NCBI GenBank assembly: GCA_963514005.1
Contig: OY740817.1
Coordinates: forward strand, 7,936,001 to 8,000,000
DNA from: Raja brachyura
Taxonomy: Eukaryota
Direction: 5' to 3'
Length of the DNA: 64,000 nucleotides
A model generated the notes under the pieces. The model saw only the letters and a program-made list of their open reading frames with translations. It was not told the origin of the DNA and ran no database searches. Below are positions 31,791-57,700 of the stretch, piece after piece. A program made the translations under genes and the position numbers. The first letter of the stretch is position 1. Every line of letters begins with the position of its first letter.

Positions 31791-32479
31791 CGTGACGTGA
31801 ACGCTCTTTCCTTGTCCCCAGGCTGCTTTCTGACCTAAGGTCTAACATAACATTGGTGGACTTGCTATTGATTGCATAAGTCTCAAGCACACTCTGTTGA
31901 ACCTGTTATTTCCGGTGGCTTTAAAAGTTGTATCAGTTGCTCACCAGAATGTGACCAAACAGCTTGTGTGAACCGTGATGATAAAAGTTCGTAGGCAGCT
32001 CCTGTATTTGGTACTGTGTTCACTCACAGCTTTGGGATTGGTTGTCTCTGGTTCATTTAACCCAACAAGAGATAAGAGCACTTGTGTGTACCACAAATAT
32101 TGTGCATAATATTTTTCATTTGTTTGAATAAAGTTGCTGACCTAATAGGAAACTAATGTAAAATAGATTAATCTGTTGCAATGGTGTAGCTTGGAAGACC
32201 AACATCTGTCAGGCTCTTGAGCAAAACACAAAGTGCTGAAGTAATTCAGCGGGTCAGGCAGCATTTCTGAGGAAATGGATAGGCAACGTTTTGGGCCAGG
32301 ACCCATCTTAATTTGAAGGATGAGGGGGGATCCTGATGTCTCTGTACCTTTTGTGTCTGTCAGAATCTTGGTATTCCCATTTGTTTCCTGTGCCGTTTTT
32401 TTGGATACTCAATGTTGTGTTTGTTCAAACCAAGGCTTGATGTTGCCACCATTTAATAGTATTTGCATTTGATTTTCAG

Positions 32480-32533
32480 GCTGGAAACTGAGTCCTGTGG
32501 TTGGTGCTGTCTACAGTCCTGAATTTTATGCAG
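32480..32533 (+). CDS. RBFOX2: RBFOX2 54-nt exon ([17 protein letters not shown])
   Basis: ttttcag| acceptor, CAG|gtaaag donor, phase 1-1, frame continuous with neighbours. Confidence 0.95.
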
Positions 32534-33446
32534 GTAAAGTGTTTCATCAGCTTTCATCCACATATTGTAACAGTTTAAAGATAAACAATCTCAACCACGG
32601 TTCCATATTTCCTTACAACATTTCTATTTTGCAGTTTCTGTATTTGTCAATCAAATTATTCCAGTGAATCAATCTAAAACATTTTCTGAATTAAAAATTG
32701 AAAACATTTGAAAAATTTGCAACTAAGAAATAAATTATTTTGTTTCTCTTTTTGAGAAGTTGGTTTAATAATAATATTATTCATAATTAATGAGTAATGA
32801 TATGTAATAATGTTGTTTACATTTTTTGGAAGTGGATCTGTGGCACTGTCCCCTAGGTTGGGTTGCGGAGATCAGCACACTGAACCCAGGCTGAGAACTG
32901 CTGGTCTGCATGATTTACACTCGTACTAGAATTTGTAACTGAGTGTCTGGTAGCCCTGCAACATAAATAGGATTGATCTAGGAAAAATTGTGCTTGCTGC
33001 TGATATCAAAAGAACGTTTTTTGTTTTATCCAAAGATACTGTCTCAGTTACTCCACATTTTTGTGTCTATTTTCTGTTTTATTTTTTTCCCTTCTCTTTG
33101 ACTATTTCGTTCCAAAAAAATTATCTTATTTTTTGCGCCCGTAGAAATTGTTGCCCTCTTCCACAAAAGGAAACGTTTTTATATATACTGTGAATCTTTT
33201 AAATGGAGGAAGTAAAGTGATCACATTTCGGATGTGAAGAATAAAAAAAAATTCTGGTAGAATTAGGAAATCGATCATCTGAATTATTGAATGATCTATT
33301 TTTGTCTATGGAAGGATACATAAAACAGTGAATTCTTGGAAAAGAGCATACAAAATATCATCATAAAATATGCATATTATATATAATGCATTTTTGCTGC
33401 CAAAGAAAATAAATGTTAATGCTGTTTTTGACATTTTTTACATTAG

Positions 33447-33521
33447 GTCCAGCATCACTATCATCTTTACCCTTTCACCTACATCCTGTTGCGTCTACAG
33501 CACTCAGTCCAACACACAATG
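33447..33521 (+). CDS. Candidate 75-nt in-frame cassette exon (GPASLSSLPFHLHPVASTALSPTHN)
   Basis: tttttacattag| acceptor, ATG|gtaaga donor, 75 nt, phase 1-1, stop-free in the required frame; no homology recognised. Confidence 0.5.
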
Positions 33522-34876
33522 GTAAGACCAATTTTTAAATATTCTATTCAAATAATTTACCTTGTAATATAACAAATGAATGGTTCAGTGGTTTCATTAT
33601 TGTTATGTATGTATAACACAATGAAATTATTTTGCACAACCCACAAATGCACAGTCACCATATTTAAGTGCCATTTACAAAGAAAGTGGCTGGCTTCTGA
33701 GGTCCTAATGTGTCTCCAAATATCTCTTAATAAAATACAGGTTATTGTAGTTTGGCATATCCAATTTGGCTTGTCTTGTGAACTCTTCTATTCCTTCCAA
33801 TTCTACACTGTATGTTCATCCCCACACCCCTCAATTCAGTGCATGCTCCACCAAGAGGAATTTAATGGTTAGGGTTTGAAAATCACTTGATAATAGTCAT
33901 AGTTATACAGTGCGGAAACAGGCCCTTTGGTCCAACTTGCCCGCACCGGTCAACATATCGCAGGTACACTAGTCCCACCAGCTTGCGTTTGGCCCACATC
34001 CCTCCAAACATGGCCAGATTATTTTGTTTTGGAGGAGCTTAATAATGTGCTTTAATTTTGTGTATAATTGTGATATGGTGTGGCTGATGTAAAGTAAAGC
34101 TATTTGCACATTTATTTAATAGATTCCTACCATATTATCACAATATTACCATAGCACGGCAAATTGAAGCAGTTCAAAAGGGGACCAGCTAGTCTATTTG
34201 CCTCGGCCATGGGGTCATATCTACATGCCCCCATCCCAACCTATATCCAATCTCTCCCCTAGTTTCAAACTGGCTAGTTAATCACTTTTAGAAGCTAAGA
34301 GCCACAGAAAAATATCCATGAGTAAAATATGAGCAATCTCTCTTCAGCTCGTTAAGACTAGCAAACTTTCCATTGGGGATCTGTATTAGGACATAGCCCG
34401 TTTATATTGTCTGATTCATAAGCTCCTCAAGATTAGTTTTGATGTTTGTTGTGAGTCCGTAATTATTGCACATGCTGGCAGTTTTTTTTCATTGAATGCC
34501 TCTGAGGAGTGGACATAGGGAAGTGCGGAGGGGGGTGGGTAGAAACAGCCTTTGATATCGTCAGTGACATTACATTTGCTTCATTTCATTCTTACTCTTT
34601 AATAGCCAGAGAGAGAGAGAGAGATTTCTCAAAACAAAAGATGTAGAAGATCCGCCTCCATTGTATTGAATGGCAAAGCAGACTTGAAGAGCCAAATTGC
34701 TGCCTTCCACTTCTTCTATGCTGTGATTGCTTTTACACAGTTTTAATTGTTTAAATGATTTTTGATTGATATATGAGAGCCACAGTTGATGATGCATAGC
34801 TTGTTTTGTTTGTTATTTTGAACAAATGTTTGTGACAGTGATCTATGTCTCTCTCCTTCATTCTGCGCATCTTCAG

Positions 34877-35006
34877 TTCCTGGTTTCCCATATCAAGCAG
34901 CCACTACTGCAGCTGCACTGAGAGGAGCCCTGAGAGGACGAGGCCGTGCAGTCTACAGCGCATTCCGTGCAGCAGCACCTCCCACTGCTATCCCAACCTA
35001 CGGAGG
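34877..35006 (+). CDS. RBFOX2: RBFOX2 130-nt exon ([44 protein letters not shown])
   Basis: cttcag| acceptor, AGG|gtaagc donor, phase 1-2; Fox-1 C-terminal domain motifs VPGFPY and LRGRGR. Confidence 0.95.
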
Positions 35007-35814
35007 GTAAGCAGATGTATTTGGAATTGAATTAGAAATCTTTGCATGTAGATTCCAATGGGATAACTTTCACTATATCTAACATAATTACTCCCCTTTT
35101 CTTTGAATTCATTATATTGTACTTAATGTCACATCATACTGTATTGCTCTAGTCAGAACATAGCATGACCTCTAATTGACCCCTTTCCGCTCATTCCTGC
35201 TCACAGTGGAGAGTGAAAAAATCTGCTTCTTGTTTTGCTCTAAATTTTGTTTTTTTATAAGGAACATCTTAGATGCTCTACAAAATTCATGGTTTGGAGA
35301 TCATTCCACTGTACCACATGCCTGTCTTACTTGCCTGCTACACAAAATGTTCTTTCTGTACCTGACAGTCTATTGAGTAGGGAACAATTTAATTAGGTTA
35401 TAATACATGATACGTATTCAGCTAACTGTATAGATCAAACTATTATGGTTGCTTGTGATACATTGGTATGCCATTTGCTCATAATTAAGTGGATATATTG
35501 TATAATTAAACAATGTACTTTAGGTATAAAAATGGTTATAATCAGGTCCAGTATAATAGTTTGGTATTCTTAACTGAATAAAGGCAGGCATTCTTAATCA
35601 ACGTTATTGCAACTCCAATTTCACCTCTTATGCAAAAAGGAAACTTATGTGAATATTTTTTGTTACTGTTTTCATATTCTCTTTGCCAACCTTCATCCTA
35701 CATTTCATTATTTTGGCTGAATTGAACACCCCATTTATGTACTTTTATAAAATGAAAAAGATGTTGTTCCCTCCCACAAATATGCAACGGCTACCACACC
35801 TTTACTATAACAGT

Positions 35815-38132: not shown

Positions 38133-38172
38133 TGTGGTTTACCAGGATGGATTTTATGGTGCCGATATTTAC
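38133..38172 (+). CDS. RBFOX2: RBFOX2 B40 exon (VVYQDGFYGADIY), brain/general mutually exclusive exon
   Basis: tctctgcag| acceptor, TAC|gtaagt donor, exactly 40 nt, phase 2-0. Confidence 0.95.
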
Positions 38173-38976
38173 GTAAGTATAAATATTATTTTACACTGTC
38201 TCCCTTCTGTTGATGAAGCCATTCTTTAAATCAGTATGCTAATACTTCCTCCAGCTGTGTGTTTTTCCATATCTGAGAGGTGTTAATTTCATGGTTTGAT
38301 CCAGTTACTTAAACTTAAAACAAGTCCCCTCAGTTTTGTACCCTGCTTAAGCTTCGTCAACTGTAAAGTTGTGCTCCTTTGCTAATAGTTGCAGTGTACA
38401 ATATTCTGAATCCTTTGAGCATTGCACACTAAAAGAATCAGAGTTTCATTTGGAATATCGTATACACTTCATTGCTTTTGTATTGAGTAAACTTGACCTT
38501 TGCTGCACTGGTTCTGATACTGCATGTAGGTTATAAGGAAACCCTTGATAAAAGTTGCTCAGGCTTACAGTATTGCTCACTAACTCTTTTGCTCTTTTTC
38601 ATTTCTACTTTTAATTATGCTGAAATCTATTGGAAAAACATTAGTCTGTCGAGTGTGCATTTGCCTTTGAAATCATATCCCTCACCTTTTGATCTATAAA
38701 TAGCAGCTGAAGTTGGCGAAATAAATGTTGTGACAGGTGCTCTGAGAGTAAATTTAACAAGTGTTCAACCTTTTCGATGTATGTAGTTGTGCAGCCTGTG
38801 ACGATCTCTTATTTAAAGACCAAGTGTTAAAAGTTTATCAGTTTAAAGCATCCTCCAATAATAGAATGGCTTTATCCAAGGAGGGTCTCTCTCTCTCACT
38901 CTCTCTCTCTCTCTCTTTGCGGTTGTTTTTTTTTTCCAGCCTCGTCGCCAATGTTCTTCCCTGTGTTTTATTATAG

Positions 38977-39019
38977 AATAGTGTATCAGGAACCAGTGTA
39001 TAGCAGTAAGTTACCGCAG
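38977..39019 (+). CDS. RBFOX2: RBFOX2 M43 exon (IVYQEPVYSSKLPQ), muscle-type mutually exclusive exon
   Basis: Long pyrimidine tract, ttatag| acceptor, CAG|gtatga donor, exactly 43 nt, phase 2-0; xVxQEP motif of known M43 exons. Confidence 0.9.
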
Positions 39020-43048: not shown

Positions 43049-43113
43049 GGTGGATATGCAGCCTATAGGTATGCGCAGCCAGCAACTGCTACTGCTACTG
43101 CATACAGTGACAG
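43049..43113 (+). CDS. RBFOX2: RBFOX2 65-nt exon (GGYAAYRYAQPATATATAYSD-S)
   Basis: ttcccag| acceptor, CAG|gtaaga donor, phase 0-2. Confidence 0.95.
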
Positions 43114-45619
43114 GTAAGAACCTTTGTTTGTTTGCTTGTTGTTTTTGTTGTTGCAACAAACTTTCTGTGCTGGATGCTATCATGCTGTTCATCCTGAAGT
43201 TTCCATTTTTGAACATTTATGATGAGAAACTATAATTGCATAATTTCTGAAATGTTGTTATAATGTGGGTTCATTGCTGAGAGCACTGTATGGATTGCCC
43301 ATGAGTGAATGAACAAACAGCACTACTTTATATTAGAGACAGTGTCATTCTTCACCACCTTACCATTAGAATAAAATCATGGTCAGGTCAAAGATATGAA
43401 AATAAGAAAAGTACCAGAAGGGGTAAAGGCACATTTAAGTTGTTTTATTTCTCTCAACGGTTTTGTGATTATTTTTTTCTCCGACTTATTCTTCCTAAAG
43501 ATATTGCCAAATGGGATATTTTTTTCTAAAGGCAATACTATTTGCGTTGCTTGTTTGAACTAACCAAGTCTTAATGGAGAATCCCTTGACTTGAAGCCTA
43601 CAGATGAACAAGTTAAAGTGTAGCTGGAAGGTTATAAATGACGCCAAGAAAGCCTTCCATCTATTCAGTGGTGGCATTTTGACATCGCCTCAACCCTCAC
43701 TGCTGGCAGGCACTATTGTGATCTTTAATGGCTGTTCTTCCCTATCTCCATTACCCAGTATTTGAACATTTGATATAAAATAAGGCAGGCAGGCAATACA
43801 AAAAAGAATTATTTTAATAGCCTTTCCCTGCACTGTATAATAATGTGTCCTCACTGATTCACCGAGGGGCTGCCTGGAGTTTAGCAATATTTGGGAGAGG
43901 ATTCTGATATACTCTGACATCTTCAGAAGGTTCTCGACGTGAAATGTCACCCATCCCTCACCTCCTTGGTGTGTTGGATTGTTGGTTGCGACGGCAATGA
44001 TAGAACAATCTGACAATGAGAGCAAAAAGGTTTCCTTGCCTTATTTTGTGGACTTTTAAAATTTGACTGCTTTCACTATTTGCCGTGATTTGTTTTGTTT
44101 TGAGAAATGCCTTATTTTTCTAAAGAAGCATATCGAGTTGTTTATGTGCCATGAATTTCACAACCAGTGCACCAGATGATTGATTTGATACGGTCAACCT
44201 AAAATCCCTTGAGGTGATCCTTCAGCCAATTCCAGACCTATAGAGAATTTCTGTTTTAAAGGTTACTAACATTATTTAGCTTCACTTTGTGAAAGGTATT
44301 GCGTCCTCAGAGTTTAGATTCAGTTTTCATCTGGAATAATGTAGGTAGCCAGCAGCGGTGCTGATGGCATGCAGTCTCTGACCCCAGTTCAATCCTGACG
44401 GAATGTTCTCCCTGTGACCTCACGTGTTTCCCCATGATGTTCCCGTTTCCTCCCACAAGACGTGGTGATTGGAAATTTAATTGGCTACCATACATTCAAC
44501 TCAAACATTCCATTAATCTTTATTGTCACACATGTACCTAGGTACAGTGAAATGCTTTGTTTTGCAGACAAACCTGGTAAAATCATAGATAGACACCAAA
44601 TGCTGGAGTAACTCAGCTGGATAGAAGGAATGGGTGACATTTTGGGTAGACTCCCTTCTTCAGACTGAGTCAGGGTAGAGGGAGTCACAGATATAAGGGA
44701 GTGCAAGTGATCATATAGCAGACCTCACCTAGGCAGTACACAACTGTACTACACCACAAGTGTATCTACGTCTTGGTGTAGAAGATGCGAGAGAGGGAGA
44801 GAGTAGGTCTCATGTAAATAAGTGCGGGAATGGGATTGTGATCGTGATAGATAAATAAGGCATTTCCTGAATCTTTGACAATGACATCTCACCTTAAGAT
44901 TGGTGATAATGAGCTTTCTCCAATTTTCAAATACTTAACCAATTCTTCTTTGTATAAGTCTGGTGCTTTTAATGTAAAGTCATAATGCTCCCTATTTAGT
45001 AATCTATGTGATTGAAATCCCCCTTGCTATAATCCTATTTCTTAGTTTATTTCTGTTTGCTTCCAATTTGCTAGCCAGAGGACTATTAGTTCATTTTATA
45101 TCCTCTTAAAACCTTTGATATTTTGAAACCTTCATTAAATCCATCATTAATCTTCCTCATTATAGTGAAAAAATAAATGTTAAACAATGTTAAACTTCAA
45201 TAAATCTGCCCTGATGTCTTTGATTTCACAGAGTTCGAATAATAGCCTTCTTTCTATATACTATATTCAGAGATCCTTGCAGTACACAAACTTTACCCTG
45301 ACCAATATGCTGTACACATTCAAAAACAGACCATGTTTAATGTTAAAAGACTGGCCAGGCTGCTTCTATGAAACATCCAGTGAGAGTGTTAGAATTACAG
45401 TATCTGTTTTTAAACTCTGTACAGGCAATATTATAAAATCTAATGTTCTTTTTCTTTAGGATGTTTCCTAAGTGCTTCCACATTTAAAGATTAATGTTAA
45501 TTTCTACAACAGGAAATATTACGATTCTAAATAATACCATTTGTCTTTAGTGTTGCTGTCCTTGCTTTCTTTGAAATAGAAAAGCCTACTCCTTGGTCAT
45601 GAGTTCACCTGTGACTTTG

Positions 45620-45902
45620 AATCTCTCTCTCTCTCCCCCTCTCTCTCCCCCTCTCTCTCCCCCTCTCTCTCCCCCTCTCTCTCCCCCTCTCTCTCCCCCT
45701 CTCTCTCCCCCTCCTCCCCCCTCCACCCCTCTCCCCCTCGTCCTCTCTCTCCCCCTCGTCCTCTCTCTCCCCCTCGTCCTCTCTCTCCCCCTCGCCCTCT
45801 CTCTCCCCCTCGTCCTCTCTCTCCCCCTCGTCCTCTCTCCCCCCCTCGTCCTCTCTCCCTGTCTCTATGTCTCTCCCTCTCGTCCTCTCTCCCTGTCTAT
45901 GT
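45620..45902. repeat. CT-rich minisatellite (12-mer ctctctctcccc then 18-mer ctcgtcctctctctcccc) running into the gap
   Basis: Directly visible tandem units. Confidence 0.9.
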
Positions 45903-46440
45903 NNNNNNNNNNNNNNNNNNNNNNNNNNNNNNNNNNNNNNNNNNNNNNNNNNNNNNNNNNNNNNNNNNNNNNNNNNNNNNNNNNNNNNNNNNNNNNNNNN
46001 NNNNNNNNNNNNNNNNNNNNNNNNNNNNNNNNNNNNNNNNNNNNNNNNNNNNNNNNNNNNNNNNNNNNNNNNNNNNNNNNNNNNNNNNNNNNNNNNNNNN
46101 NNNNNNNNNNNNNNNNNNNNNNNNNNNNNNNNNNNNNNNNNNNNNNNNNNNNNNNNNNNNNNNNNNNNNNNNNNNNNNNNNNNNNNNNNNNNNNNNNNNN
46201 NNNNNNNNNNNNNNNNNNNNNNNNNNNNNNNNNNNNNNNNNNNNNNNNNNNNNNNNNNNNNNNNNNNNNNNNNNNNNNNNNNNNNNNNNNNNNNNNNNNN
46301 NNNNNNNNNNNNNNNNNNNNNNNNNNNNNNNNNNNNNNNNNNNNNNNNNNNNNNNNNNNNNNNNNNNNNNNNNNNNNNNNNNNNNNNNNNNNNNNNNNNN
46401 NNNNNNNNNNNNNNNNNNNNNNNNNNNNNNNNNNNNNNNN
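45903..46440. other. Assembly gap (538 N)
   Basis: Run of n. Confidence 1.
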
Positions 46441-46639
46441 CTCTACCCCTCACACAACAGAACAGCAAACTGGTTATTTTCGGGGCAGATTGGTAACCAT
46501 TGTGAAAATGCTGTTTGTTGAAAGGGTTAATATGGAAACAAGTAGAAAATAGACTCAAACATTGCTGTTAATGCTTAATACCATATAAGCCAAGCATTTC
46601 TGTTTTTACATCGCAAATAAATGCCTTGCCTCTTTTCAG

Positions 46640-46712
46640 CTATGGGCGTGTTTACACGGCAGATCCCTATCACACACTTGCTCCTGCGCCTACCTATGGA
46701 GTCAGCGCTGTG
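46640..46712 (+). CDS. RBFOX2: RBFOX2 73-nt exon (YGRVYTADPYHTLAPAPTYGVSAV)
   Basis: tcttttcag| acceptor, GTG|gtaagt donor, phase 2-0; RVYTADPYH is RBFOX2-like. Confidence 0.95.
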
Positions 46713-47206
46713 GTAAGTCAACCATTATATTTGTTTCTTTAAACAACAAAGTAGTGAATTACCGTCTTTGACATTAAACACACTGCAGGATTATAAAAGA
46801 TTGAAATGGGCACCAGGTCAAATGTCATGTCAGGGGAGGCCTGGATGGCTGAAACGGTAGAAAGTGGTTGATGCAACAAAGTGACAAAGATTCCTGCTGG
46901 ATGGGATGACACCAGACACAGCATTACAATCATTGAAAGATATGCCGTTGCAGAAAATGCTTATGCGACGATTGGGTGGGTAAAATTGGAACCAAATTAG
47001 GGCAGACCCATGAAACATCACAACTGAGAAGAGACGTTGGAAGACATAGGTGTGACAAATCCTGTCATGAACTGCAGAAAGATTCATAGAGAAAGGTGTA
47101 AGATGCCCAAAAGTCGGTGTATTGTCAGTCATTGCTGTGACAAGAGCGGAAACCTGTTAGGAGATTGAAAAGTGGAATTCTGGCCTTGGTCAAATTGACG
47201 TATGAG

Positions 47207-47508
47207 TTTTACTTTAGAGGTACAGTGGGGAAACAGGCCCTTCGGCCCACCGAGTCCATGCCGACCAGCGATTCCCGCACACCAGCACTATCCTACACAC
47301 ACTAGGGAATATTTACAATTTTACCAAACCAATTAGCCAACAAACTCGTATGTCTTTGGATTGTGGGGGGAAACTGAAGCTCCTGGAGAAAACCCACGCA
47401 AGTCACGGGAAGAACGTACAAGTTCCATACAGACAGCACCCGTACTCAGGATCGAACCCGGATCTCTGGCGCTGTGAGGCAGCAACTCTACCGCTACGCC
47501 ACCGTGCC
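47207..47508 (-). mobile_element. tRNA-derived V-SINE (HE1-like), near full length
   Basis: Minus strand ggcacggtggcgtagcggtag (A box), gggttcgatcc (B box), V-domain core, CR1-like tail. Confidence 0.85.
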
Positions 47509-48042
47509 TTGGGTTTCACAGCTACAAACAGATTCAGTTCCACAGCTAGTCTTGATGAGAATTGATTTCAACTTCTAAGCTGATAATAAATATATTTGTT
47601 GACAGTACTTCAAGGTCAGTTCTATACCTTATTTGAATTCACCTCGAAGCACTTTTTGAAATGTAATTTGTTTGTGTTTTACCATCAGGTCTGTAGATTA
47701 CATGATGGTTGTTGAGGCAGAGTAGGACCTGTGCACACTGCCACAGGTGGTGCAAGAGGTGTGGTGGCTTGGCAAGTGGTGCATTCACTCCGTCATATGC
47801 TTTGGTTTTTTTTGTTCCCGAGTATCCATTTGCCATCCAGAACGCTGCTGTGAACCAGGGATTCCCATGTGTCATTGGGCATGCTGCGCTTTTACAAGGG
47901 AGCTTTGAGGGGGGGGGGGCCTTGAATCACATTGGGTTTTCTCCCTTTTATCCACTTGGTGATCTTTTACGGTGACAAAGCTCTGAGTGCAGTATCTGTT
48001 TCAAGAGTCTGGTGTTGGGGATATAAACAATGTAGCTTTGGA

Positions 48043-48340
48043 TGGCGTAGCGCCAGAGTAGTTACTCCACAGCGCCTCACAGCACCAGAGACCCGAGTTC
48101 AATCCTGATTACGGGTGCAATCTGTACAGAGTTTGTATGTTCTCCCCCTGACCACGTTGGTTTTCTCCCGGTGCTCCAGTTTAATCCCACGCTCAAAAGA
48201 AGTACAGGTTTGTAGGTTAATTGGCTTGGTAAAATTTTACATTGTCCTTGGTGTGTGGCATAGTGTTAGTGTAGCAGGGTGATCGCTAGACAGCGTGGAC
48301 TTGGTGGCCGAAGGGCCTGTTTGCATGCTGTATCTCCAAA
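48043..48340 (+). mobile_element. tRNA-derived V-SINE
   Basis: tggcgtagcg A-box-like, gagttcaatcc B-box-like, ggccgaagggcctgttt tail. Confidence 0.8.
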
Positions 48341-48850
48341 TTTGTGGAAGGACATTCTTGCTATTGAGGGAGTGCAGCGTAGGTTCACGAGGTTAATTCC
48401 CGGAATGGCGGGACTGTCCCATGTCGAAAGAATGGAGCGACTGGGCTTGTATACACTGGAATTTCGAAGGATGAGAGGGGATCTTATTGAAACATATAAG
48501 ATTATTAAGGGATTAGACACGCTGGAGGCAGGAAACATGTTCCCGATGTTTGGGGAGTCCACAACCAGGAGCTACAGTTTAAGAATAAGGGGTAGGCCAT
48601 TTAGAACGTAGATGAGGAAGTCCTTTTTCACCCAGAGGGTTGTGAATTTGTGGAATACTCAGAAGGCAGTGGAGGCCAATTCTCTGGATGCTTTCAAGAG
48701 AGTTAGATAGAGCTCTTAAAGATAGTGGAGTCAAGGGATATGGGGAGAAGGCAGGAATGTTGTATCGATTGTGGATGATCAGCAATGATCACAGCGAATT
48801 GCGGTGCTGGCCCGAAGGGCTGAATGGCCTACTCCTGCACCTATTGTCTA
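48334..48850 (+). mobile_element. CR1 LINE 3' fragment abutting the SINE
   Basis: SPNLWKDILAIEGVQRRFTRLIPG...RGDLIETYKIIKG; ctattgtcta tail. Confidence 0.88.
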
Positions 48851-48961
48851 AGTTGAAAGCCCACTCATCAAAGCTGGCTGAGTGTAATTAGAGTCACAAC
48901 TCACAAGAGGAAGCTGACATCTATCCTGCCAACGCTTTTGGAGGATGTTTCCAAAACAATG

Positions 48962-49135
48962 AACCTTTCTCCCACCTTCTCCCTGTAACCTTTGATGCCT
49001 TTACTAATGAAGAATCCATCAGTCTCTGCTTTAAAAACACCCAATGTATTGGCTTCCACTGCTGTCTGTGGCAATGAATTCCACAGACTCACTACCCTCT
49101 GGCTAAATAAATTCCTCCTTGTCTCCATTCTAAGA
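48962..49135 (-). mobile_element. CR1 3' fragment
   Basis: RRNLFSQRVVSLWNSLPQTAVEA. Confidence 0.75.
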
Positions 49136-49827
49136 CATTCTAAGAGCAACATATTTGCTCCTGTTCTTTAGAATGTGGAAATACAAAGAAAATAGTTTTG
49201 TTTAAAAACATTTAATCAGTGAGGTTGAGTAAATGATTGTGGTCTTCAAATTAATAAAAAGCAACCACCTTTCTGGTTTGAACCTCTGGGAAGTGGGAAG
49301 GCGATAAAGAATCAGGGCATGAAATTGTTTGAATTTCTGTCTGCAGACATACTCACATTGTTAGTGTTATCGGGGAACCTGCAAAATGTTTTAATTTCAC
49401 CTTGTCTGGGAGATTGTGCGCACTCAACTATCTGATCAACAAATCTCTGGAACAATTCTATAGGCACTAGGTTCAATTAAAGTGATTGATTGTTTTTTGA
49501 TGGTTAATGCGTCTATCCAAGTTTCAATTGAATTCCTGTACTGCTGATTGATGAGGAGGCCAGGTACAAAATGGTTATTTCTGCTTCTCTCCACAACTAT
49601 CAAAATAAAACTTGCCAGGCTTGAGAACTTCTCACAGACGTACTTCTCAGTTCTCTGCTGGTTCTTTTATTGACTTAATTTTAACTCTCCTGACTGAGCA
49701 CAGACTGACTGAACAGTGAGCCAGCTGTTGACGCTGCATATTGACCACCTGAAACTACAGGTCACGGGTCAGGGCAATTGAGTTTCTTACCGAAGGTCTC
49801 CTATGTTTATCCTAATGGTTTGAATTG

Positions 49828-50111
49828 AGCAGCGGTAGAGTTGCTTCCTTACAGTGCTTGCAGCACCAGAGACCCGGGTTCGATCCCGACTACTGGCGCT
49901 GTTTGTACGTTCTCCCCATGGGTTTTCTCCGAGATCTTCGATTTCCTCCCACACTCCAAAGACGTACAGGTTTGTAGGTTAATTGGCTTGGTGTATGTGT
50001 AACTTGTCCCTAATGTGTGTAGGATAGTGTTAATGTGCAGAAATCGCTGGTTGGTGCGTACTCAGTGGGCCGAAGGGCCTGTTTCCGTGCTGTATCCCTA
50101 AACTAAACTAC
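49828..50111 (+). mobile_element. tRNA-derived V-SINE
   Basis: gcagcggtagag, gggttcgatccc B box, (ctaaa)n tail. Confidence 0.85.
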
Positions 50112-50673
50112 ATGGGAGATTTCCTGAATGTGTTGACTTGAGATGAGATTGAATAGAGGTATCTTGGACTGTTTAATCACTTATTTCAGCCAGGGCAACA
50201 ATTGATTCACAGTGCAGTTCAGGAGGGGGGAGATATAGAGCAACCATTCTCAATCGCTTTCCATTCTCTCCATACGAGAGAATAAATATCTTATCAAGTG
50301 TGGGCAAAATTAAGTTCTGGTGTATGCTCCAAAACTCCTAAATAATCAGCCAGCACTCACCCATATGAGTTAAAGCAGCAGTACTGAAGATAGGAACTGG
50401 CATTCCAAACTGCATTGGAGAAGAGATGGTCACAGATCAAATAAAATACCAAATCCTTCATTGCACTTTGCTTTGCAGTTGTTACAGTCCCTGCAGCTTT
50501 ATTTTAATGCAAGTAGATTAAAAGATAGTTTCCCTCTTTCATCTCTTCAAACTGTAAATCCTGCTAATATGTGGTTCTCTCTAATGACCCCTGGTCATTA
50601 ATTCCAGGCGTTAAGTGTCTCCAGGCTATTCAAACATGGCAACAGGTTTGAGCCTGTCTTTATTTGACATGTA

Positions 50674-52747
50674 CAGTGCCCTCCATGATGTTTGGGACAA
50701 AGACCCATCATTTATTTATTTGCCTCTGTACTACACAATTTGAGATTTGTAATAGAAAAAAAGTCACGTGGTTAAAGTGCACATTGTCAGATTTTAATAA
50801 AGGCCATTTTTATACATTTTGCTTTCACCATGTACAGCAGTGTTTATAAATAGTCTCCCCCATTTCAGGGCACCATAATGTTTGGGACACAGCAATGTCA
50901 TGTAAATGAAAGTAGTCATGTTTAGTACTATGTTGCATATCCTTTGCATGCAAAGACTGCTTGAAGTCTGCGATTCATGGACATCACCAATTGATGGGTG
51001 TCTTCTCTGGTGATGCTCTGCCAGGCCTGTATTACAGCCATATTTAGCTTATGTTTGTTTTGGGGGCTAGTACCCTTCAGTTTTCTCTTTAGCATATTAA
51101 AGGCATGCTCAATTGGGTTCAGATCAGGCGATTGACGACCACTCAAGAATTGATCATTTTTAGCTTTGAAAAACTCCTTTGTTGCTTTAGCCGTATGTTT
51201 GGGATCATTGTCTTGCTGTAGAATAAACCGCTGGCCCATAAGTTTTGAGGCATTTGTTTGAACTTGAGCAGATATGATGTGTGTACACATAGAATTCATT
51301 ATGCTGCTACCATCAGCAGTTATAGACAATAGGCAATAGGTGCAGAAGTAAGCCATTCGAGCCAGCACCACCATTCACTGTGATCATGACTGATCATTCA
51401 CATTCAGTACCCCGTTCCTGCCTTCTCACCATGTCTCCTGACTCCGCTATCTTTAAGAGCTCTATCTAACTCTCTCTTGAAAGCATCCATAGATTTGGCC
51501 TCCACCTCCTTCTGAGGCAGAGAATTCCACAGATTCACAACTCTCTGGGTAAAAAAGTTTCTCCTCATCTCTGTTCTAAATGGCCTACCCCTTATTCTTA
51601 AACTGTGGGCCCTGGTTCTGGACTCCCCCAACATCAGGAACATGTTTCCTGCCTCTAGCGTGTCCAATCCCTTAATAATCATATATATTGTAATAAGATC
51701 CCCTCTCATCCTTCTAAATTCGAGTATATATAAGCTCAACATATGACAGTCCCGCCAGTTGTATTATCAATGAAGATAAGTGAGCCAGTACTTTCAGCAG
51801 CCATACATGCCAAGACCATAACACCCCCACCACCGTGTTGCACAGATGAAGTGGTATGCTTTGGATCTTGGGCAGCTCCTTCTCTCCTCTATACTTTGCT
51901 CTTGCCATCACTCTGATATGTTAAACTTCGTCTCATCTGTCCACAAGACCTTTTTCCAAAACTGTAGTCGCTCTTTTAAGCAGTTCTTGGCAAACTGTAA
52001 CCTGGCCATCCTATTTTTGCGGCTAACCAGTAGTTTTCTTGCAGTGTAGCCTCTGAATTTCTGTACATTAAGTCTTCTGCGGACAGTGGTCATTGACAAA
52101 TCCACACCTGACTGCTGAAGAGTGTTTCTGATCTGTTGGATGTGTTTGGGAATTTTTCTTTGTTATAGAGAGAATTCTTCTGTCATCAGCTGTGGAGGTC
52201 TTCCTTGGCCTGCCAGTCCCTTTGCGATTCGTAAGCTCACCAGTGCTCTCTTTCTTCTTAATGATGTTCCAAACAGTTGATTTTGGTAAGCCTAAGGTTT
52301 GGCTGATGTCTCTAACAGTTTTATTCTTGTTTCTCAGTCTCATAATGGCTTCTTTGACTTTCATTGGCACAACTTTGGTCCTCATGTTGATAAACAGCAA
52401 TAAAAATTTGCAAAGGTGATGGAAAGACTGGAGGAAAGACTAGGTGCTGAGAACTCTCTTATACCTGCATTAAGGAGGGAATTAAACACACCTGAGCAAC
52501 TACAAACCCCTCTGAAGCCATGTGTCCCAAACATTATGGTGCCCTGAAAGGGGGGGGGGGGGAGACTCTGTATAAACACTGCTGTAATTTCCACATGGTG
52601 AAACCACAATGTATAAAAATGGCTTTTATTAAAATCTGACAATGTGCACTTTCACCACATGTGATTTTTTTCCTATTACAAATCTCAAATTTGTGGAGTT
52701 CAGAGGCAAATAAATAAATGATGGATCTTTGTCCCAAATATTATGGA
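50674..52747 (-). mobile_element. Tc1-family DNA transposon (defective), ~220-bp IR/DR terminal repeats
   Basis: TA|CAGTG start; IRs 50674-50890 and 52522-52747; transposase pieces HTH-GRPRK, WTDETKFN, QQDNDPKH, SPDLNPIEH; frameshifts and a nested CR1. Confidence 0.92.
51322..51755 (-). mobile_element. CR1 LINE nested in the Tc1 transposase
   Basis: ORF 51404-51742; CAGTT flanking repeat at 51317-51321 and 51756-51760. Confidence 0.9.
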
Positions 52748-54723
52748 AACATCAAGTACAAAGGCACTTTCTTATCTGAGCATTTGTTAATGACGAGCTA
52801 TGAGAAATGTGATTATTTTCTGAGCCAGATGCTGTAAAATCTTTAACATAATGTGCAGGCTATTCCCTCCACACCTTGCCAGTTCCTCCCAGGCGCCTCT
52901 TCAGCTTTTGGCCTAGGCTAGGATAAAAAGCTAGGATAACAACATTTAGTGAGTAATCTGTCTTGTGACAGTTAAGAGAAATTAACATTGAATGTGCTAT
53001 GGCAGACAAAAGTGCTGGAGAAACTCAGCGGGTGAGGCAGGCAGCATCTATGGAGCGAAGGAAATAGGCAAAATTTCGGGCCAAGACTCTTCTTGTGCTA
53101 TGTTCCATTTTCCTAATTTACAGAGCTTCTGGTCCCCCAAATAGCATCAGCAATTGAAAAGCTGACAAAAAGCAGCAAAGTACAAGTTGTGTGTCACACA
53201 ATGTACCGTTGAGTTGAGTGGGTATGGTCAGAAAAGGATTTATAAGCAGTTTTGCAGCAAAAGTCAGCCATGTCTGCAGGATCACGCTATAAACAAGCTT
53301 CAAATTCCAGCTCGCTTTTAAATAAAATCAACTTCAGCTCCGCTAAAATAAAACATCAAGTCTCTAGTGGGCAAAGTCCATTCAGGTCAAACTGCCTGTA
53401 TGTGGATTCGCTATTTATTATATTTCCCACCGATGAAAGTACTGGCTCATAATTAGCTGCACTTGTGCATCAGCTACCCAGCAGGTCAGGCAGCATCTGT
53501 GGAAATAGATTGGTGTCAGGTAGGCAGCCAGATCATAGACAATTGTGGACACAAAAATCTGCAAATGCTGATTTAGAGGGAAAAAAATAATGCTGGTTCG
53601 ACTCAACTGATCAGGCAGCATCTCTGGAGAAAATGGATAGGTGATGTTTCGGGTCGGAACCCTTATTGCGACAATTATGCATCGCTACATTTTTAGACCT
53701 ATTCATCACATAGAAACATAGAAAATAGGTGCAGGAGTAGGCCATTCAGCCCTTCTAGCCAGCACCGCCATTCAATATGTTCATGTCTGTTCACAACAAC
53801 CATTAGATAGTAAGGGCATGAACTGGGCTGATATTTAAAAAAAATGTTTTTATTTCACTATGCCAGTGTGCCCAGCCACAGTATGCCGAGTCACTCCTAA
53901 ACTGAGTATTCAGTACAGTTACATTTGAATACTAGGCTGGCGATGGTGCCTTGCAGCTTAGATCACCCAAAGTCATAGTACCTGCAGGAAGAAAACAGTT
54001 GTTGTATCAGTTTCATTTTCCACAGATGCCTGACCTGAATGTGTCCAACATTCTCTGCTTTTATTTCAGATTTTCAGCATCTACAGGTTCAGGAAGATAA
54101 ACTCGATAAGGAATGTTCTTCTTTTGTTCAGCTAGTGAGGATCAACTGTAGAAACCCTGTGTCTAACTGATCACTGGCCAGTCCTTTTTAGATTTTCCTC
54201 AACCTGGCGAGTAACACGCTGTCCTCTCTCCCCCACCCACCCACCCAGAGTCTGTTGATTTTACAGTCAAATAAGCATCTTATATCACTGGCAAACGGGA
54301 GAGCAAATTTTCCTTTCAAATAGAGAAATTCTATTTCATATGGGAAATATTACGACCTTATGTAGAAAGATCTTATAAACAGCAACATGTCAATGACTCA
54401 ATTATCTGCCTCAGTATGCTGATTGAGGGACCAGGGAGTATATTTCTTGCATTTTAAACATTGCCATGGTATTGCTTACATCCACTGGAAAGTACAGTAG
54501 GGGCCTGATTTAACATCTCATAAATATTCTAACTTGCAGACTGCGCATCTTCAGTATTGCACTTCATGGCCCACCTAGATTTTCATGTTTAATTCTCTGG
54601 AATTGGAAGCTACATAGATGAGTGTGTGCTGGTGCCAATGCCGCAGCTGAATGTTAAATGTTTATTTTGCTTTACACACTGCATGTTTAGTTTGCTTTAC
54701 ATAGTGTTCTTTTGTTTTTCCAG

Positions 54724-54768
54724 GCTAGTTTATACCGAGGTGGATACAGTCGTTTCGCTCCCTACTAA
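54724..54768 (+). CDS. RBFOX2: RBFOX2 terminal coding segment (ASLYRGGYSRFAPY*) with PY-type NLS
   Basis: tttttccag| acceptor; ends TAC TAA; matches the RBFOX2 C-terminus as recalled. Confidence 0.96.
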   Translation, partial: ASLYRGGYSRFAPY

Positions 54769-57700
54769 AAGTGATGTGAACTCCTGCAATGGGAACAGCC
54801 CCTTCCCAAGGCCTGGTTGTTGCAATATTACAAGTAGTGGAACTTTATAGCAACTCAACACGAAAAAAAATACACGAGAAAGAGAGGAAATCATTACACA
54901 AGAGACCTACTTTTTTATACCTCATTATGTTCTTCTAAACATGTATTTTTTTTCCTTATGTTTATGCCTTCATTTTTTTTTGTTCCAAAGATTGTGCAGA
55001 CAGTTTTTAACTGTGGTATAAAAGTGCATTTCTTTGTGTGTGTAGTGACATTTATAAAATCAGCCTCATTTGACAAAAGACAGTCAAGAAATTAAAAATA
55101 TTAGGCACAAAAGCAGTAGTAGAAACCAAAAGTGAAATTGGGTGCTCGTGGGAATCTGGTCCCAATGGTGTGTGTGTATGGAACAGCAGCGCCAAAGGAT
55201 TGTGGTTATAAAGAATCTTGATAGGAGAGAGAAAGGCAGACAGATTTGCCACTGAATGGGATCAGTCCAAAATGAGGAGGAGAGGTAGGGGAAAGCTGGA
55301 AATTACCCAAATGTGAGTTGATGGAAACAGTTTTATGTTGTGCTTTGATTTTTGTTGTGAGGATAGCAACAGTTTCCATCTATTCATCATTTCCAGAGGT
55401 AATCGGCATGTTAATTGTGCCTGTTTGTACCCAACTAAATGGTAGCAACGAATGAAATATAGGTTGCTATCAAATGTAAAGTGGCTGCAACGTTAACTTT
55501 TTGTCCATTTTTATCATTTGTTTAAGACTCTTAAGACCACACATGCCACCTCATCCTACCCTCTTCCCACTGGTATGTAAATTTATCTGAACAAATTTGT
55601 TTTTAAAATTATCTAGACTGAATGCATTAGGATCCCAGCAAATTCCAAATGGAGGTTTTATTGGAACCTCCTGGTGTAAATGGGGCAGGTTTACACTGCA
55701 CTGTCAGGTAGCACCATTGAGTAAAGTGATACAATCCAGAAGTGTTGGCACTAAATATATGCATGTTTTAATTGCATCAGGTTAATTGAATTGTATTACC
55801 CAATTTATTAGTTTTTTTTAATGTGACCGAGGATATTGCTCAGACTGGCTGACATTTTTGCATTCAGCAGAATTACATGCAAATTTAATGCAGTTTCTAA
55901 ATCAAACTTTCTGTTAACTCTAATTGTCATCATTGGATTTTGGCTGCTTTGTGATCTTTGTTTCATTTACCTCTGTCTTCGGTGAGTACCTAAACGAGCA
56001 GGGAGATGCTGCACAGAAAATGGTCATCTGGCGAAAGACGACTCCAGCTCTACCTCTGCCTGAGAGGTGCGAGCTGGAAGGAGCGATGCATATAGGCTGG
56101 GGATTGAGAGCTTGCAGCAGCAAAAGTGTGGAAGGATGGTCAGCCACACAGTAGTATCATGTAAAAAGAGGTATGAATTCCACAAAATGTCAGCTGGCAT
56201 TTCACAGGAATTCGTGTTGTTATTTCAGATGTTAAACTTTTTTAAGAAGTTAGCTGAGCAAATGTGTGAGGGTTAGTCACTGAGGCTGCAGGTCAGATTG
56301 ATTTATTGTGCACATCTGGGCCTGGCTTGGACCTATCCATTCTGCTCTGATGTTCCTGGGGCTTTGCTGTCTGTTTGAGAACCCTGTTATATCTCCACAC
56401 TGGGAGATCTGGGTTGAACGAAGTGTACTTCCACAGTTCAGACAGCACAGTTGTTGCCAGAGCTTCTGATCATGCAGTATCCCCCCCAACACAGTGTACA
56501 CTGCACCGGCTTAGTAAGCTATTTAAAGAAAATCAATCTTTGTTAAAAGAAAAAGGGACACTAGTCGTAGAGACCACACTGCCGCCCTTAAATTATGATT
56601 ATTTTTTTTGCAAGCCAAAGCATGGTTTGTCGCTGTATGACAATTATGTTTTTTGTATATAAAATATTTTAGTTGTCGTTATAATGGGGAAACATTCACA
56701 GAAAAGTCTCATCACAGAGGAAGGAAATTAAAATGGGAATGTGGTGTGGTGCTTGACAGCATCTCCTGATAGTGCTCCAGTTAGTTTAGTTGCGCATATA
56801 AAATGCTACCATAGAACGAAAACCTAAAAATCACAGATGGCTTGTATTAATGGGAGTTGCTATTCTGTGTCACACCAGATTCAATAATCGCTTTCATTCC
56901 TATGACTACAAATCATATTCTTTTACTTAGGTTAACTTTTATATTATAACCAGTGAACATGTTAGTAAGTTAGTACTGCAGCTGCACTCTACTCTATTGA
57001 CTACCAAGTAACCCAAGGGTATTGTTCTCGATCCTTGTCTTTGTTTTGTAAAAGCCTCAGAGCAGTTGTAGAATAGGCAGAATGTTTGGAGGGAACAATT
57101 TCTGAGTAGAGTAAATGTTTTTTTAATCCTCTTTTTATTTGTCAAAAAGACCTTCTTGCTTCTAGCAGGAATTGGCCATGTCCAGTCAACAGCTTGTCGC
57201 ATGGTAAAAGTCCAACAGCCCGTCCATCAGATCAGCTTCTATGGGACAGACCCGTTTTATTTGTTTTGTGTTGTGCATGCGTGTGTGTGAGTGTGTGTGG
57301 TTTTTTTTTGGACGGGACCCATGGCTGTATCCCGACTGGAATAGGAAACCCTTGGTTGTTAGCAGTAGGAGTCATTATCACAGCGGCATGGCTGACGCAG
57401 ATACTTGAACCATTTAACCATTTCAGCCTTTTTGTAAACAACATTAATTTCTTTCCATTTACTTCTAATACAGTTCACCCGACACAATCACAATCCCTTT
57501 TCCCCACCAACACCACCATCATCCTGGCCCCCCTTCCCCCCCAGGAAAACAAGGATAGGCTTCATCTTCCGCAGCTGGAAGGCTGTATGAACCTTGAAAG
57601 ATAAGAGAACTCGCTCTGCGAGCTCCGATCAGAGATGAGCGGTGGGATGGGGGATCTGGAAGTTGTGCTGTGGTGCAGGCGTGGGAAAGGGAATAAAATA

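Follow-up and report, generated by a model that had tools for sequence, protein, structure and literature searches.

A 75-nucleotide RBFOX2 coding exon conserved among cartilaginous fishes and likely included constitutively

The stretch of Raja brachyura DNA analysed here (64,000 nucleotides, referred to as the window) carries a gene that, by its sequence, is the rbfox2 gene of cartilaginous fish. Its exons were mapped across the window by tblastn with skate and shark proteins (Table 1). The matching proteins contain an RRM (PF00076) and a Fox-1_C domain (PF12414), the latter at window positions 34876-35010. Three Fox-1_C loci are present in this genome, on contigs C21, C23 and C55. Exon sequences mark the C21 locus as RBFOX1-type and the C23 locus as RBFOX3-type, and C55, the contig of the window, carries rbfox2 at 7.94-7.99 Mb, heme oxygenase at 8.48 Mb and EIF3D at 10.24 Mb. 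The other heme oxygenase is located on C21 together with the RBFOX1-type gene. The neighbours on C55 and C21 match the surroundings of human RBFOX2 (22q12: heme oxygenase, EIF3D) and of human RBFOX1. When an N-terminal query was used, the named proteins among the 86 listed non-chondrichthyan matches were RBFOX2 or unspecific, and none was RBFOX1 or 3. In a tree of 23 proteins, from which the slot inserts described below had been removed, the chondrichthyan proteins form a clade (99/99) which is sister to bony-vertebrate RBFOX2 with moderate support (84/75). The 130-nt exon of the gene is 100% identical to that of Amblyraja. Two tandem heme oxygenase genes occupy C55:8478132-8488005, about 0.5 Mb from rbfox2. 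A protein of the sawshark Pristiophorus groups with a fourth, rbfox1l-like paralog (P0388, P0468); three Fox-1_C loci were found here, and a fourth Rbfox gene may have been lost, may have diverged or may have been missed in this genome.

Table 1. Exons and splice signals of rbfox2 in the window (window positions)
Feature	Position	Strand	Evidence
93-nt RRM exon, skipped in 16/127 records; internal control for alternative splicing	17044..17136	+	tblastn, splice sites, records
61-nt exon ending the RRM (VNNATARV...PYAN); accounts for the loose 5' end of the contig	23550..23610	+	contig, tblastn, splice sites
Upstream 54-nt exon	32480..32533	+	tblastn, splice sites, contig
Candidate branch point TTAAT, A at -28	33416..33420	+	sequence only
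T-rich tract and acceptor AG (AG at 33445-33446)	33421..33446	+	sequence; joint 32533>33447
75-nt coding exon of rbfox2, phase 1-1, adds GPASLSSLPFHLHPVASTALSPTHN	33447..33521	+	junction-spanning contigs, chondrichthyan protein records, single copy in genome
Donor gtaaga of the 75-nt exon	33522..33527	+	joint 33521>34877, GT..AG
Downstream 130-nt exon, start of Fox-1_C (PF12414 positions 1-47)	34877..35006	+	contig, tblastn, domain match, splice sites
40-nt alternative exon; internal control	38133..38172	+	tblastn, splice sites, records
43-nt alternative exon; internal control	38977..39019	+	tblastn, splice sites, records

The 75-nt exon is located in the intron between the 54-nt and 130-nt exons, the place where inserts sit in some Rbfox genes and which is called the slot here. 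An earlier sequence-only reading of this DNA had described a stop-free block of 75 nt with an acceptor ending in cattag, the donor ATG/gtaaga and phase 1-1 in agreement with both neighbours, and all of these features are confirmed in the sequence. It had also described the block as C-rich within a very AT-rich intron. The first part of this description stands, since the exon contains 36% C and 11% G against 18% C in the rest of the two flanking introns. The second part does not, because with 65% A+T the introns differ little from the average of the window, and only the 200 nt upstream of the exon are markedly AT-rich (74% A+T). The splice sites are ordinary (donor with 5 of 7 consensus positions, 11 of 16 pyrimidines) and equal to those of the 54-nt exon; the candidate branch point was chosen by the consensus for such sites. 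A scan of about 53 kb of rbfox2 introns, in which the values of the exon itself served as thresholds, gave three frame-preserving, stop-free exon candidates. One is the 75-nt exon, and the other two have a common donor at 25745, inside a dispersed repeat. No other copy of the 75-nt exon was found in this genome, where it gives a single match both as DNA and as peptide. The exon also has no similarity to a dispersed repeat that would suggest a repeat-derived exonisation, although very common words are ignored by the DNA search and a source of great age may no longer be recognisable.

Assembled read contigs reveal how the exon is spliced. Each of 11 runs, belonging to six organisms and 7 studies, contains all 7 sampled words of the exon; none of these runs is on record as RNA and 5 are guessed to be RNA. 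Four runs (X1, X2, X4 and X5) were placed on window positions 32300-35200, the span in which joints were assessed. X4 and X5 have one 322-nt contig each, with depths of 504 and 581, which crosses the 54-nt, 75-nt and 130-nt exons. In both contigs the joints 32533>33447 (913 nt skipped, GT..AG) and 33521>34877 (1355 nt skipped, GT..AG) are found, exactly those expected from the sequence-only reading. The two runs represent one study of one related organism with unlabelled tissue and are flagged as 'RNA? (probably DNA)'. Despite this flag their contigs are spliced RNA, because introns are missing at exact splice sites, the contigs continue into the exon at 23550-23610, and the exon is single-copy in this genome. 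X1 and X2 contain the words of the exon, yet are without a contig over it (a filter of the tool leaves some records out). The stretch at 33447-33521 is a real, spliced, in-frame coding exon of rbfox2. That it might instead be a chance pseudo-exon or an annotation artefact could be argued from the one other donor in the gene that passes the same filter and from the predicted nature of RefSeq isoforms. This is refuted by the junction-spanning contigs, whose depth is about 500 compared with only 11-14 for the intron-reading contig. Moreover, the same peptide occurs in 22 species and two proteins called on Logan contigs (P0187, P0228) include the exon, so that we consider an artefact practically excluded. 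The intron that follows the 75-nt exon contains a short high-copy repeat (window positions 33895-34010), whose summed depth exceeds 20,000 in each of the four runs.

A joint that skips the exon (32533>34877) is present in neither the X4 nor the X5 contigs, and contigs drop rare variants. The 3' end of the 322-nt contig is at 35006, the point where the 40-nt and 43-nt exons diverge. By its length the contig starts 2 bases before the 61-nt exon, at an AG common to the ends of two possible upstream exons, which is the branch for the 93-nt RRM exon (30 of the 62 letters were seen). From these two ends we infer that the contigs seem to be interrupted where two known alternative events occur, but not at the 75-nt exon. 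Assemblers can lose low-coverage paths, and a minor or tissue-limited form without the exon could be missed in contigs.

Protein records point in the same direction. Among the fetched chondrichthyan RBFOX2 records with the upstream exon, 127 of 128 have the identical 25 residues. These records, gathered by an exon-blind search, from cluster members (92 listed from 10 clusters) and by a peptide search, are mostly predicted isoforms with many per species and are not independent. They represent 22 named species (three skates, six other batoids, twelve sharks and Callorhinchus milii), so that holocephalans and elasmobranchs are both covered. Frame-preserving conservation in shark, skate and chimaera, which the sequence-only reading had proposed as a check, is found in these records in the strict form of 25 identical residues. 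The sole record without the 75-nt exon is P0211 (UniRef A0A4W3IYG6), a 265-aa Callorhinchus fragment. A downstream-exon query, which is blind to the insert, retrieved 77 proteins, and all 47 chondrichthyan ones carry the 25 residues. A skip isoform scores 89 bits in the peptide search, below the 93-bit listing cut-off, and only slot-blind searches bear on skipping. In the same record set the 93-nt RRM exon is skipped as tabulated, and the 130-nt exon is followed by the 40-nt exon in 53 records, by the 43-nt exon in 47 and by neither in 26. The 40-nt and 43-nt exons are presumably those named B40 and M43.

The term cassette, applied to the exon by the sequence-only reading, does not agree with its inclusion in 127 of 128 records and the lack of a skip joint in X4 and X5, where a rare form may escape the contigs. 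The exon could nevertheless be a regulated cassette that is mostly included and is skipped in some tissue or stage. Its length divisible by three, its phase 1-1 and the Callorhinchus record without it are in favour of this possibility. Amniote RBFOX2 provides a further argument, as it is without its own slot exon in 33 of the 76 records that have the upstream exon (mostly bird and turtle; 10 more are unscorable), and TGCATG sites are present at 32907-32912 and at 33840..33845 (+), the latter about 320 nt downstream of the exon. However, TGCATG is not enriched around the exon: the 2.3 kb there have 2 sites and the 53.7 kb used for comparison have 30, which corresponds to the average of the gene. 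The X4 and X5 contigs are unbroken, and inclusion is seen in 47 of 47 and 127 of 128 records while other exons vary. A regulated cassette therefore appears improbable to us. The 75-nt exon is likely constitutive, i.e. always included and not optional, and its near-complete inclusion in all tissues can be inferred. Around the 93-nt RRM exon (window 16941-17143), TGCATG occurs at 16941, 17007 and 17138 together with a GCATG just before the acceptor, and the site at 17138 overlaps the donor of this exon (GAG/gtgcatgt). Self-regulation of Rbfox is known, and the TGCATG sites around the 93-nt exon fit it.

None of the 25 columns of the peptide varies, whereas 24 of 108 do so in the disordered exons at the N-terminus (Fisher p 0.004). 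Among the other post-RRM columns 9 of 170 vary (p 0.28), which indicates that the constraint on the peptide equals that on the remaining C-terminal half and does not exceed it.

The sequence-only reading had called the exon unrecognised, which does not hold, as it is already part of RefSeq models. Predicted chondrichthyan isoforms named 'RNA binding protein fox-1 homolog 1-like/2-like' have the same exon, the same 25 residues and the same neighbours without any sequence difference. Examples are XP_032868976.1 of Amblyraja radiata, XP_055519134.1 of Leucoraja erinacea, XP_041033882.1 of Carcharodon carcharias and XP_042200983.1 of Callorhinchus milii. These models are silent on the lineage range and the splicing status of the exon. 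No paper on the 75-nt exon was found in the literature covered, which mostly excludes subscription journals. The exon itself is already in automated gene models, and what is added here is an evolutionary context and a test, not a new gene part.

The slot inserts retrieved from amniotes are 31 aa long in RBFOX2 (ASSFQADVSLG...) and 27 aa long in RBFOX1 (G[TR]VLLCQANQEG...). The amniote RBFOX2 exon is similar to the chondrichthyan exon in gene, intron, phase, frame-preserving layout and conservation within its lineage. However, it is longer, unrelated in sequence and, as described above, missing from many records. A 12-nt acceptor variant (SLPLV) has been reported for the mammalian RBFOX2 slot exon, and 44 rat brain clones vary at this acceptor beside the slot, with no loss of the slot exon listed in Table 1 of that report (PMC5577181). 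The amniote RBFOX1 exon is present in the same slot and phase of the paralog and is likewise Ser/Thr/Pro-rich in its second half, but it has no significant similarity to the chondrichthyan peptide (best p 0.16) and no match in the RBFOX1 intron of this genome. It is missing in 12 of 30 non-chondrichthyan records of the exon-blind search (10 of 28 mammalian ones, plus frog and teleost). No assigned role of the amniote slot exons was found in the literature covered.

Slot peptides were aligned globally and locally with three matrices and compared with 5000 shuffles. In these alignments the chondrichthyan peptide resembles neither the RBFOX1 nor the RBFOX2 slot exon of amniotes (global p 0.16-0.98, local p 0.56-0.98). 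Between the three slot-exon families no pair scores better than the shuffles, while the similarity of the two RBFOX1 versions to one another reaches p 0.0002. What looked like a match to the sauropsid RBFOX1 exon (PV.S...L..T) lacks significance against shuffles and was rejected. The proposal that the chondrichthyan gene has a third, sequence-unrelated exon in the slot of the RBFOX1 and RBFOX2 exons is borne out by these alignments. In this genome the slot introns of RBFOX1 (34,591 nt) and RBFOX3 (17,639 nt) have no match to any of four slot peptides. A survey of representative protein records (20 of 150 named) reveals an empty slot in teleost rbfox2 (Mastacembelus, Scleropages, Notothenia), in teleost rbfox1 (Perca, Cyprinus, Paramormyrops, Gadus) and in RBFOX3-type and hagfish records. 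Other slot inserts, of 3-55 residues, occur in a few single records and look like prediction noise.

Among the best 120 of 3413 peptide-search matches, no related insert was found outside chondrichthyans, and scores drop from the chondrichthyan set (126-174 bits) directly to amniote RBFOX1 (93-94). In a simulation of the sensitivity of this search, a tetrapod-like RBFOX2 with a 30%-identical copy was listed in 19 of 20 cases, and teleost-like flanks need about 80% identity. Absence of the exon in bony vertebrates is a statement about protein records, among which no coelacanth, lungfish, gar, bichir or amphibian RBFOX2 is named. A single gain in the chondrichthyan stem, independent of the amniote slot exons, is likely, and a single stem gain before the split of chimaeras and elasmobranchs is the simplest history. 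This split took place more than 400 million years ago. Since basal bony fishes lie outside the records covered, a loss of the exon in bony vertebrates is possible. The best reading of the Rbfox slot is one of repeated exon gain rather than of demonstrated turnover. The hot spot for exon turnover suggested by the sequence-only reading is therefore an overstatement, as three separate gains into an empty intron fit the records better than replacement.

An older exon would have been present in the RBFOX2 ancestor of gnathostomes and subsequently lost, moved or replaced in bony vertebrates, or would have diverged from an amniote exon beyond recognition. Such a history would account for the intron and phase common to the chondrichthyan and both amniote exons and for their similar lengths (25, 27 and 31 aa). 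It could also draw on the alignment to the sauropsid RBFOX1 exon (6 identities in 24) and on a resemblance of the 5' half (ASLSSLPF) to an insert of 8-12 aa located one intron upstream in teleost rbfox2. However, no alignment to the amniote exons beats shuffles, and total divergence between lineages is unlikely as each exon is nearly invariant in its own lineage. A loss also takes two steps against one, the teleost insert precedes the 54-nt exon instead of following it, and any pyrimidine-rich stretch gives peptides rich in S, L, P and F, as the look-alike from the repeat at 25638 illustrates. We therefore regard an older origin as unlikely, and a stem gain as the preferred history.

The teleost insert is situated between the 61-nt and 54-nt exons (EALSTLPYA in P0340). 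Its likeness to the 5' half of the 75-nt exon, noticed after the fact, reaches local p values of 0.0006-0.02 in 7 related records (P0340, P0370, P0385, P0389, P0399, P0406 and P0415). A pyrimidine-rich origin of both sequences could explain this likeness, which may reflect homology with a swap of exon order or convergence. A match to the teleost insert at about 31678 (5 of 500 shuffles, one query) is without fitting splice sites and reads like a retroelement fragment, and was discarded. A 108-nt pseudo-exon at 25638-25745, with 10 identities in 22, was considered as a duplicate of the 75-nt exon and rejected. It belongs to a dispersed repeat that matches at 10 other places. An equal score at some place in the gene is reached by 199 of 200 shuffled peptides, and an equal DNA alignment by 212 of 980 random windows. 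The stretch is nevertheless frame-preserving and stop-free with good splice signals inside a pyrimidine-rich dispersed repeat, and repeats of this kind are a possible source of S/L/P-rich exons.

Among lineage-specific internal exons, the older ones have been reported to tend to be constitutive and coding (bioRxiv 10.1101/009282). The 75-nt exon is comparable to the older exons described there in being single-copy, non-repeat, old, coding and apparently constitutive. In contrast to that mammalian set, it is far older and is part of a splicing regulator of cartilaginous fish.

The insert follows the residues of the 54-nt exon and directly precedes Fox-1_C. In an AlphaFold2 prediction based on an alignment of 26 sequences, only the RRM folds. 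The insert (P0016 residues 228-252) has a pLDDT below 50 nearly throughout and no secondary structure, low pLDDT not being proof of disorder. Only scores below 0.8 were obtained from the ESM Atlas for residues 276-340. The insert is devoid of tyrosine and rich in Ser, Thr, Pro, Leu, Ala and His. The C-terminal domain of Rbfox has been described as a Tyr-rich low-complexity sequence which interacts with LASR and on which higher-order assembly and the activation of splicing depend (PMC12435732). Taken as a whole, the explanation that we favour, and regard as fairly probable, is a likely constitutive exon, gained once in the stem, which encodes a predicted disordered 25-residue spacer before the Tyr-rich domain. 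A pyrimidine-rich intron sequence would have been exonised where the ancestor of gnathostomes had an intron without any exon in it, and the new exon would then have become fixed. Its Ser/Thr/Pro-rich, tyrosine-free peptide would act as a linker and determine how far the RRM lies from the Tyr-rich region, which serves LASR binding and self-assembly. Through this distance the spacer may tune splicing activity, with RNA recognition unchanged, and it might carry a putative Ser-Pro phosphorylation site. The weakest step of this explanation is the predicted role of the insert as a distance-setting linker that tunes splicing activity, to which we would give slightly less than an even chance. A wider and rather unlikely extension is that vertebrate Rbfox genes have repeatedly come under pressure for a longer linker from the RRM to the Tyr-rich region. 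The three unrelated slot exons and a fourth, teleost insert next door, each frozen in its lineage, would then have arisen convergently and be interchangeable in tuning LASR binding or self-assembly, and the shark version would be locked in as constitutive.

In heart, muscle and brain, RBFOX2 has a central part in the regulation of splicing, and it owes its activity to the C-terminal domain. The three unrelated slot peptides constitute a natural swap experiment. If they can replace one another, the slot is a length-tuned spacer, and if they cannot, each of them hides a motif of its own. Further along the C-terminal region, the 26 records with neither the 40-nt nor the 43-nt exon have a C-terminus in another frame, which is open in the window (38133-39019, 43050-54850). 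These records resemble the '-40' isoforms reported in rat (PMC5577181). Two Leucoraja erinacea records (P0180 and P0185) have a short alternative tail after the 40-nt exon.
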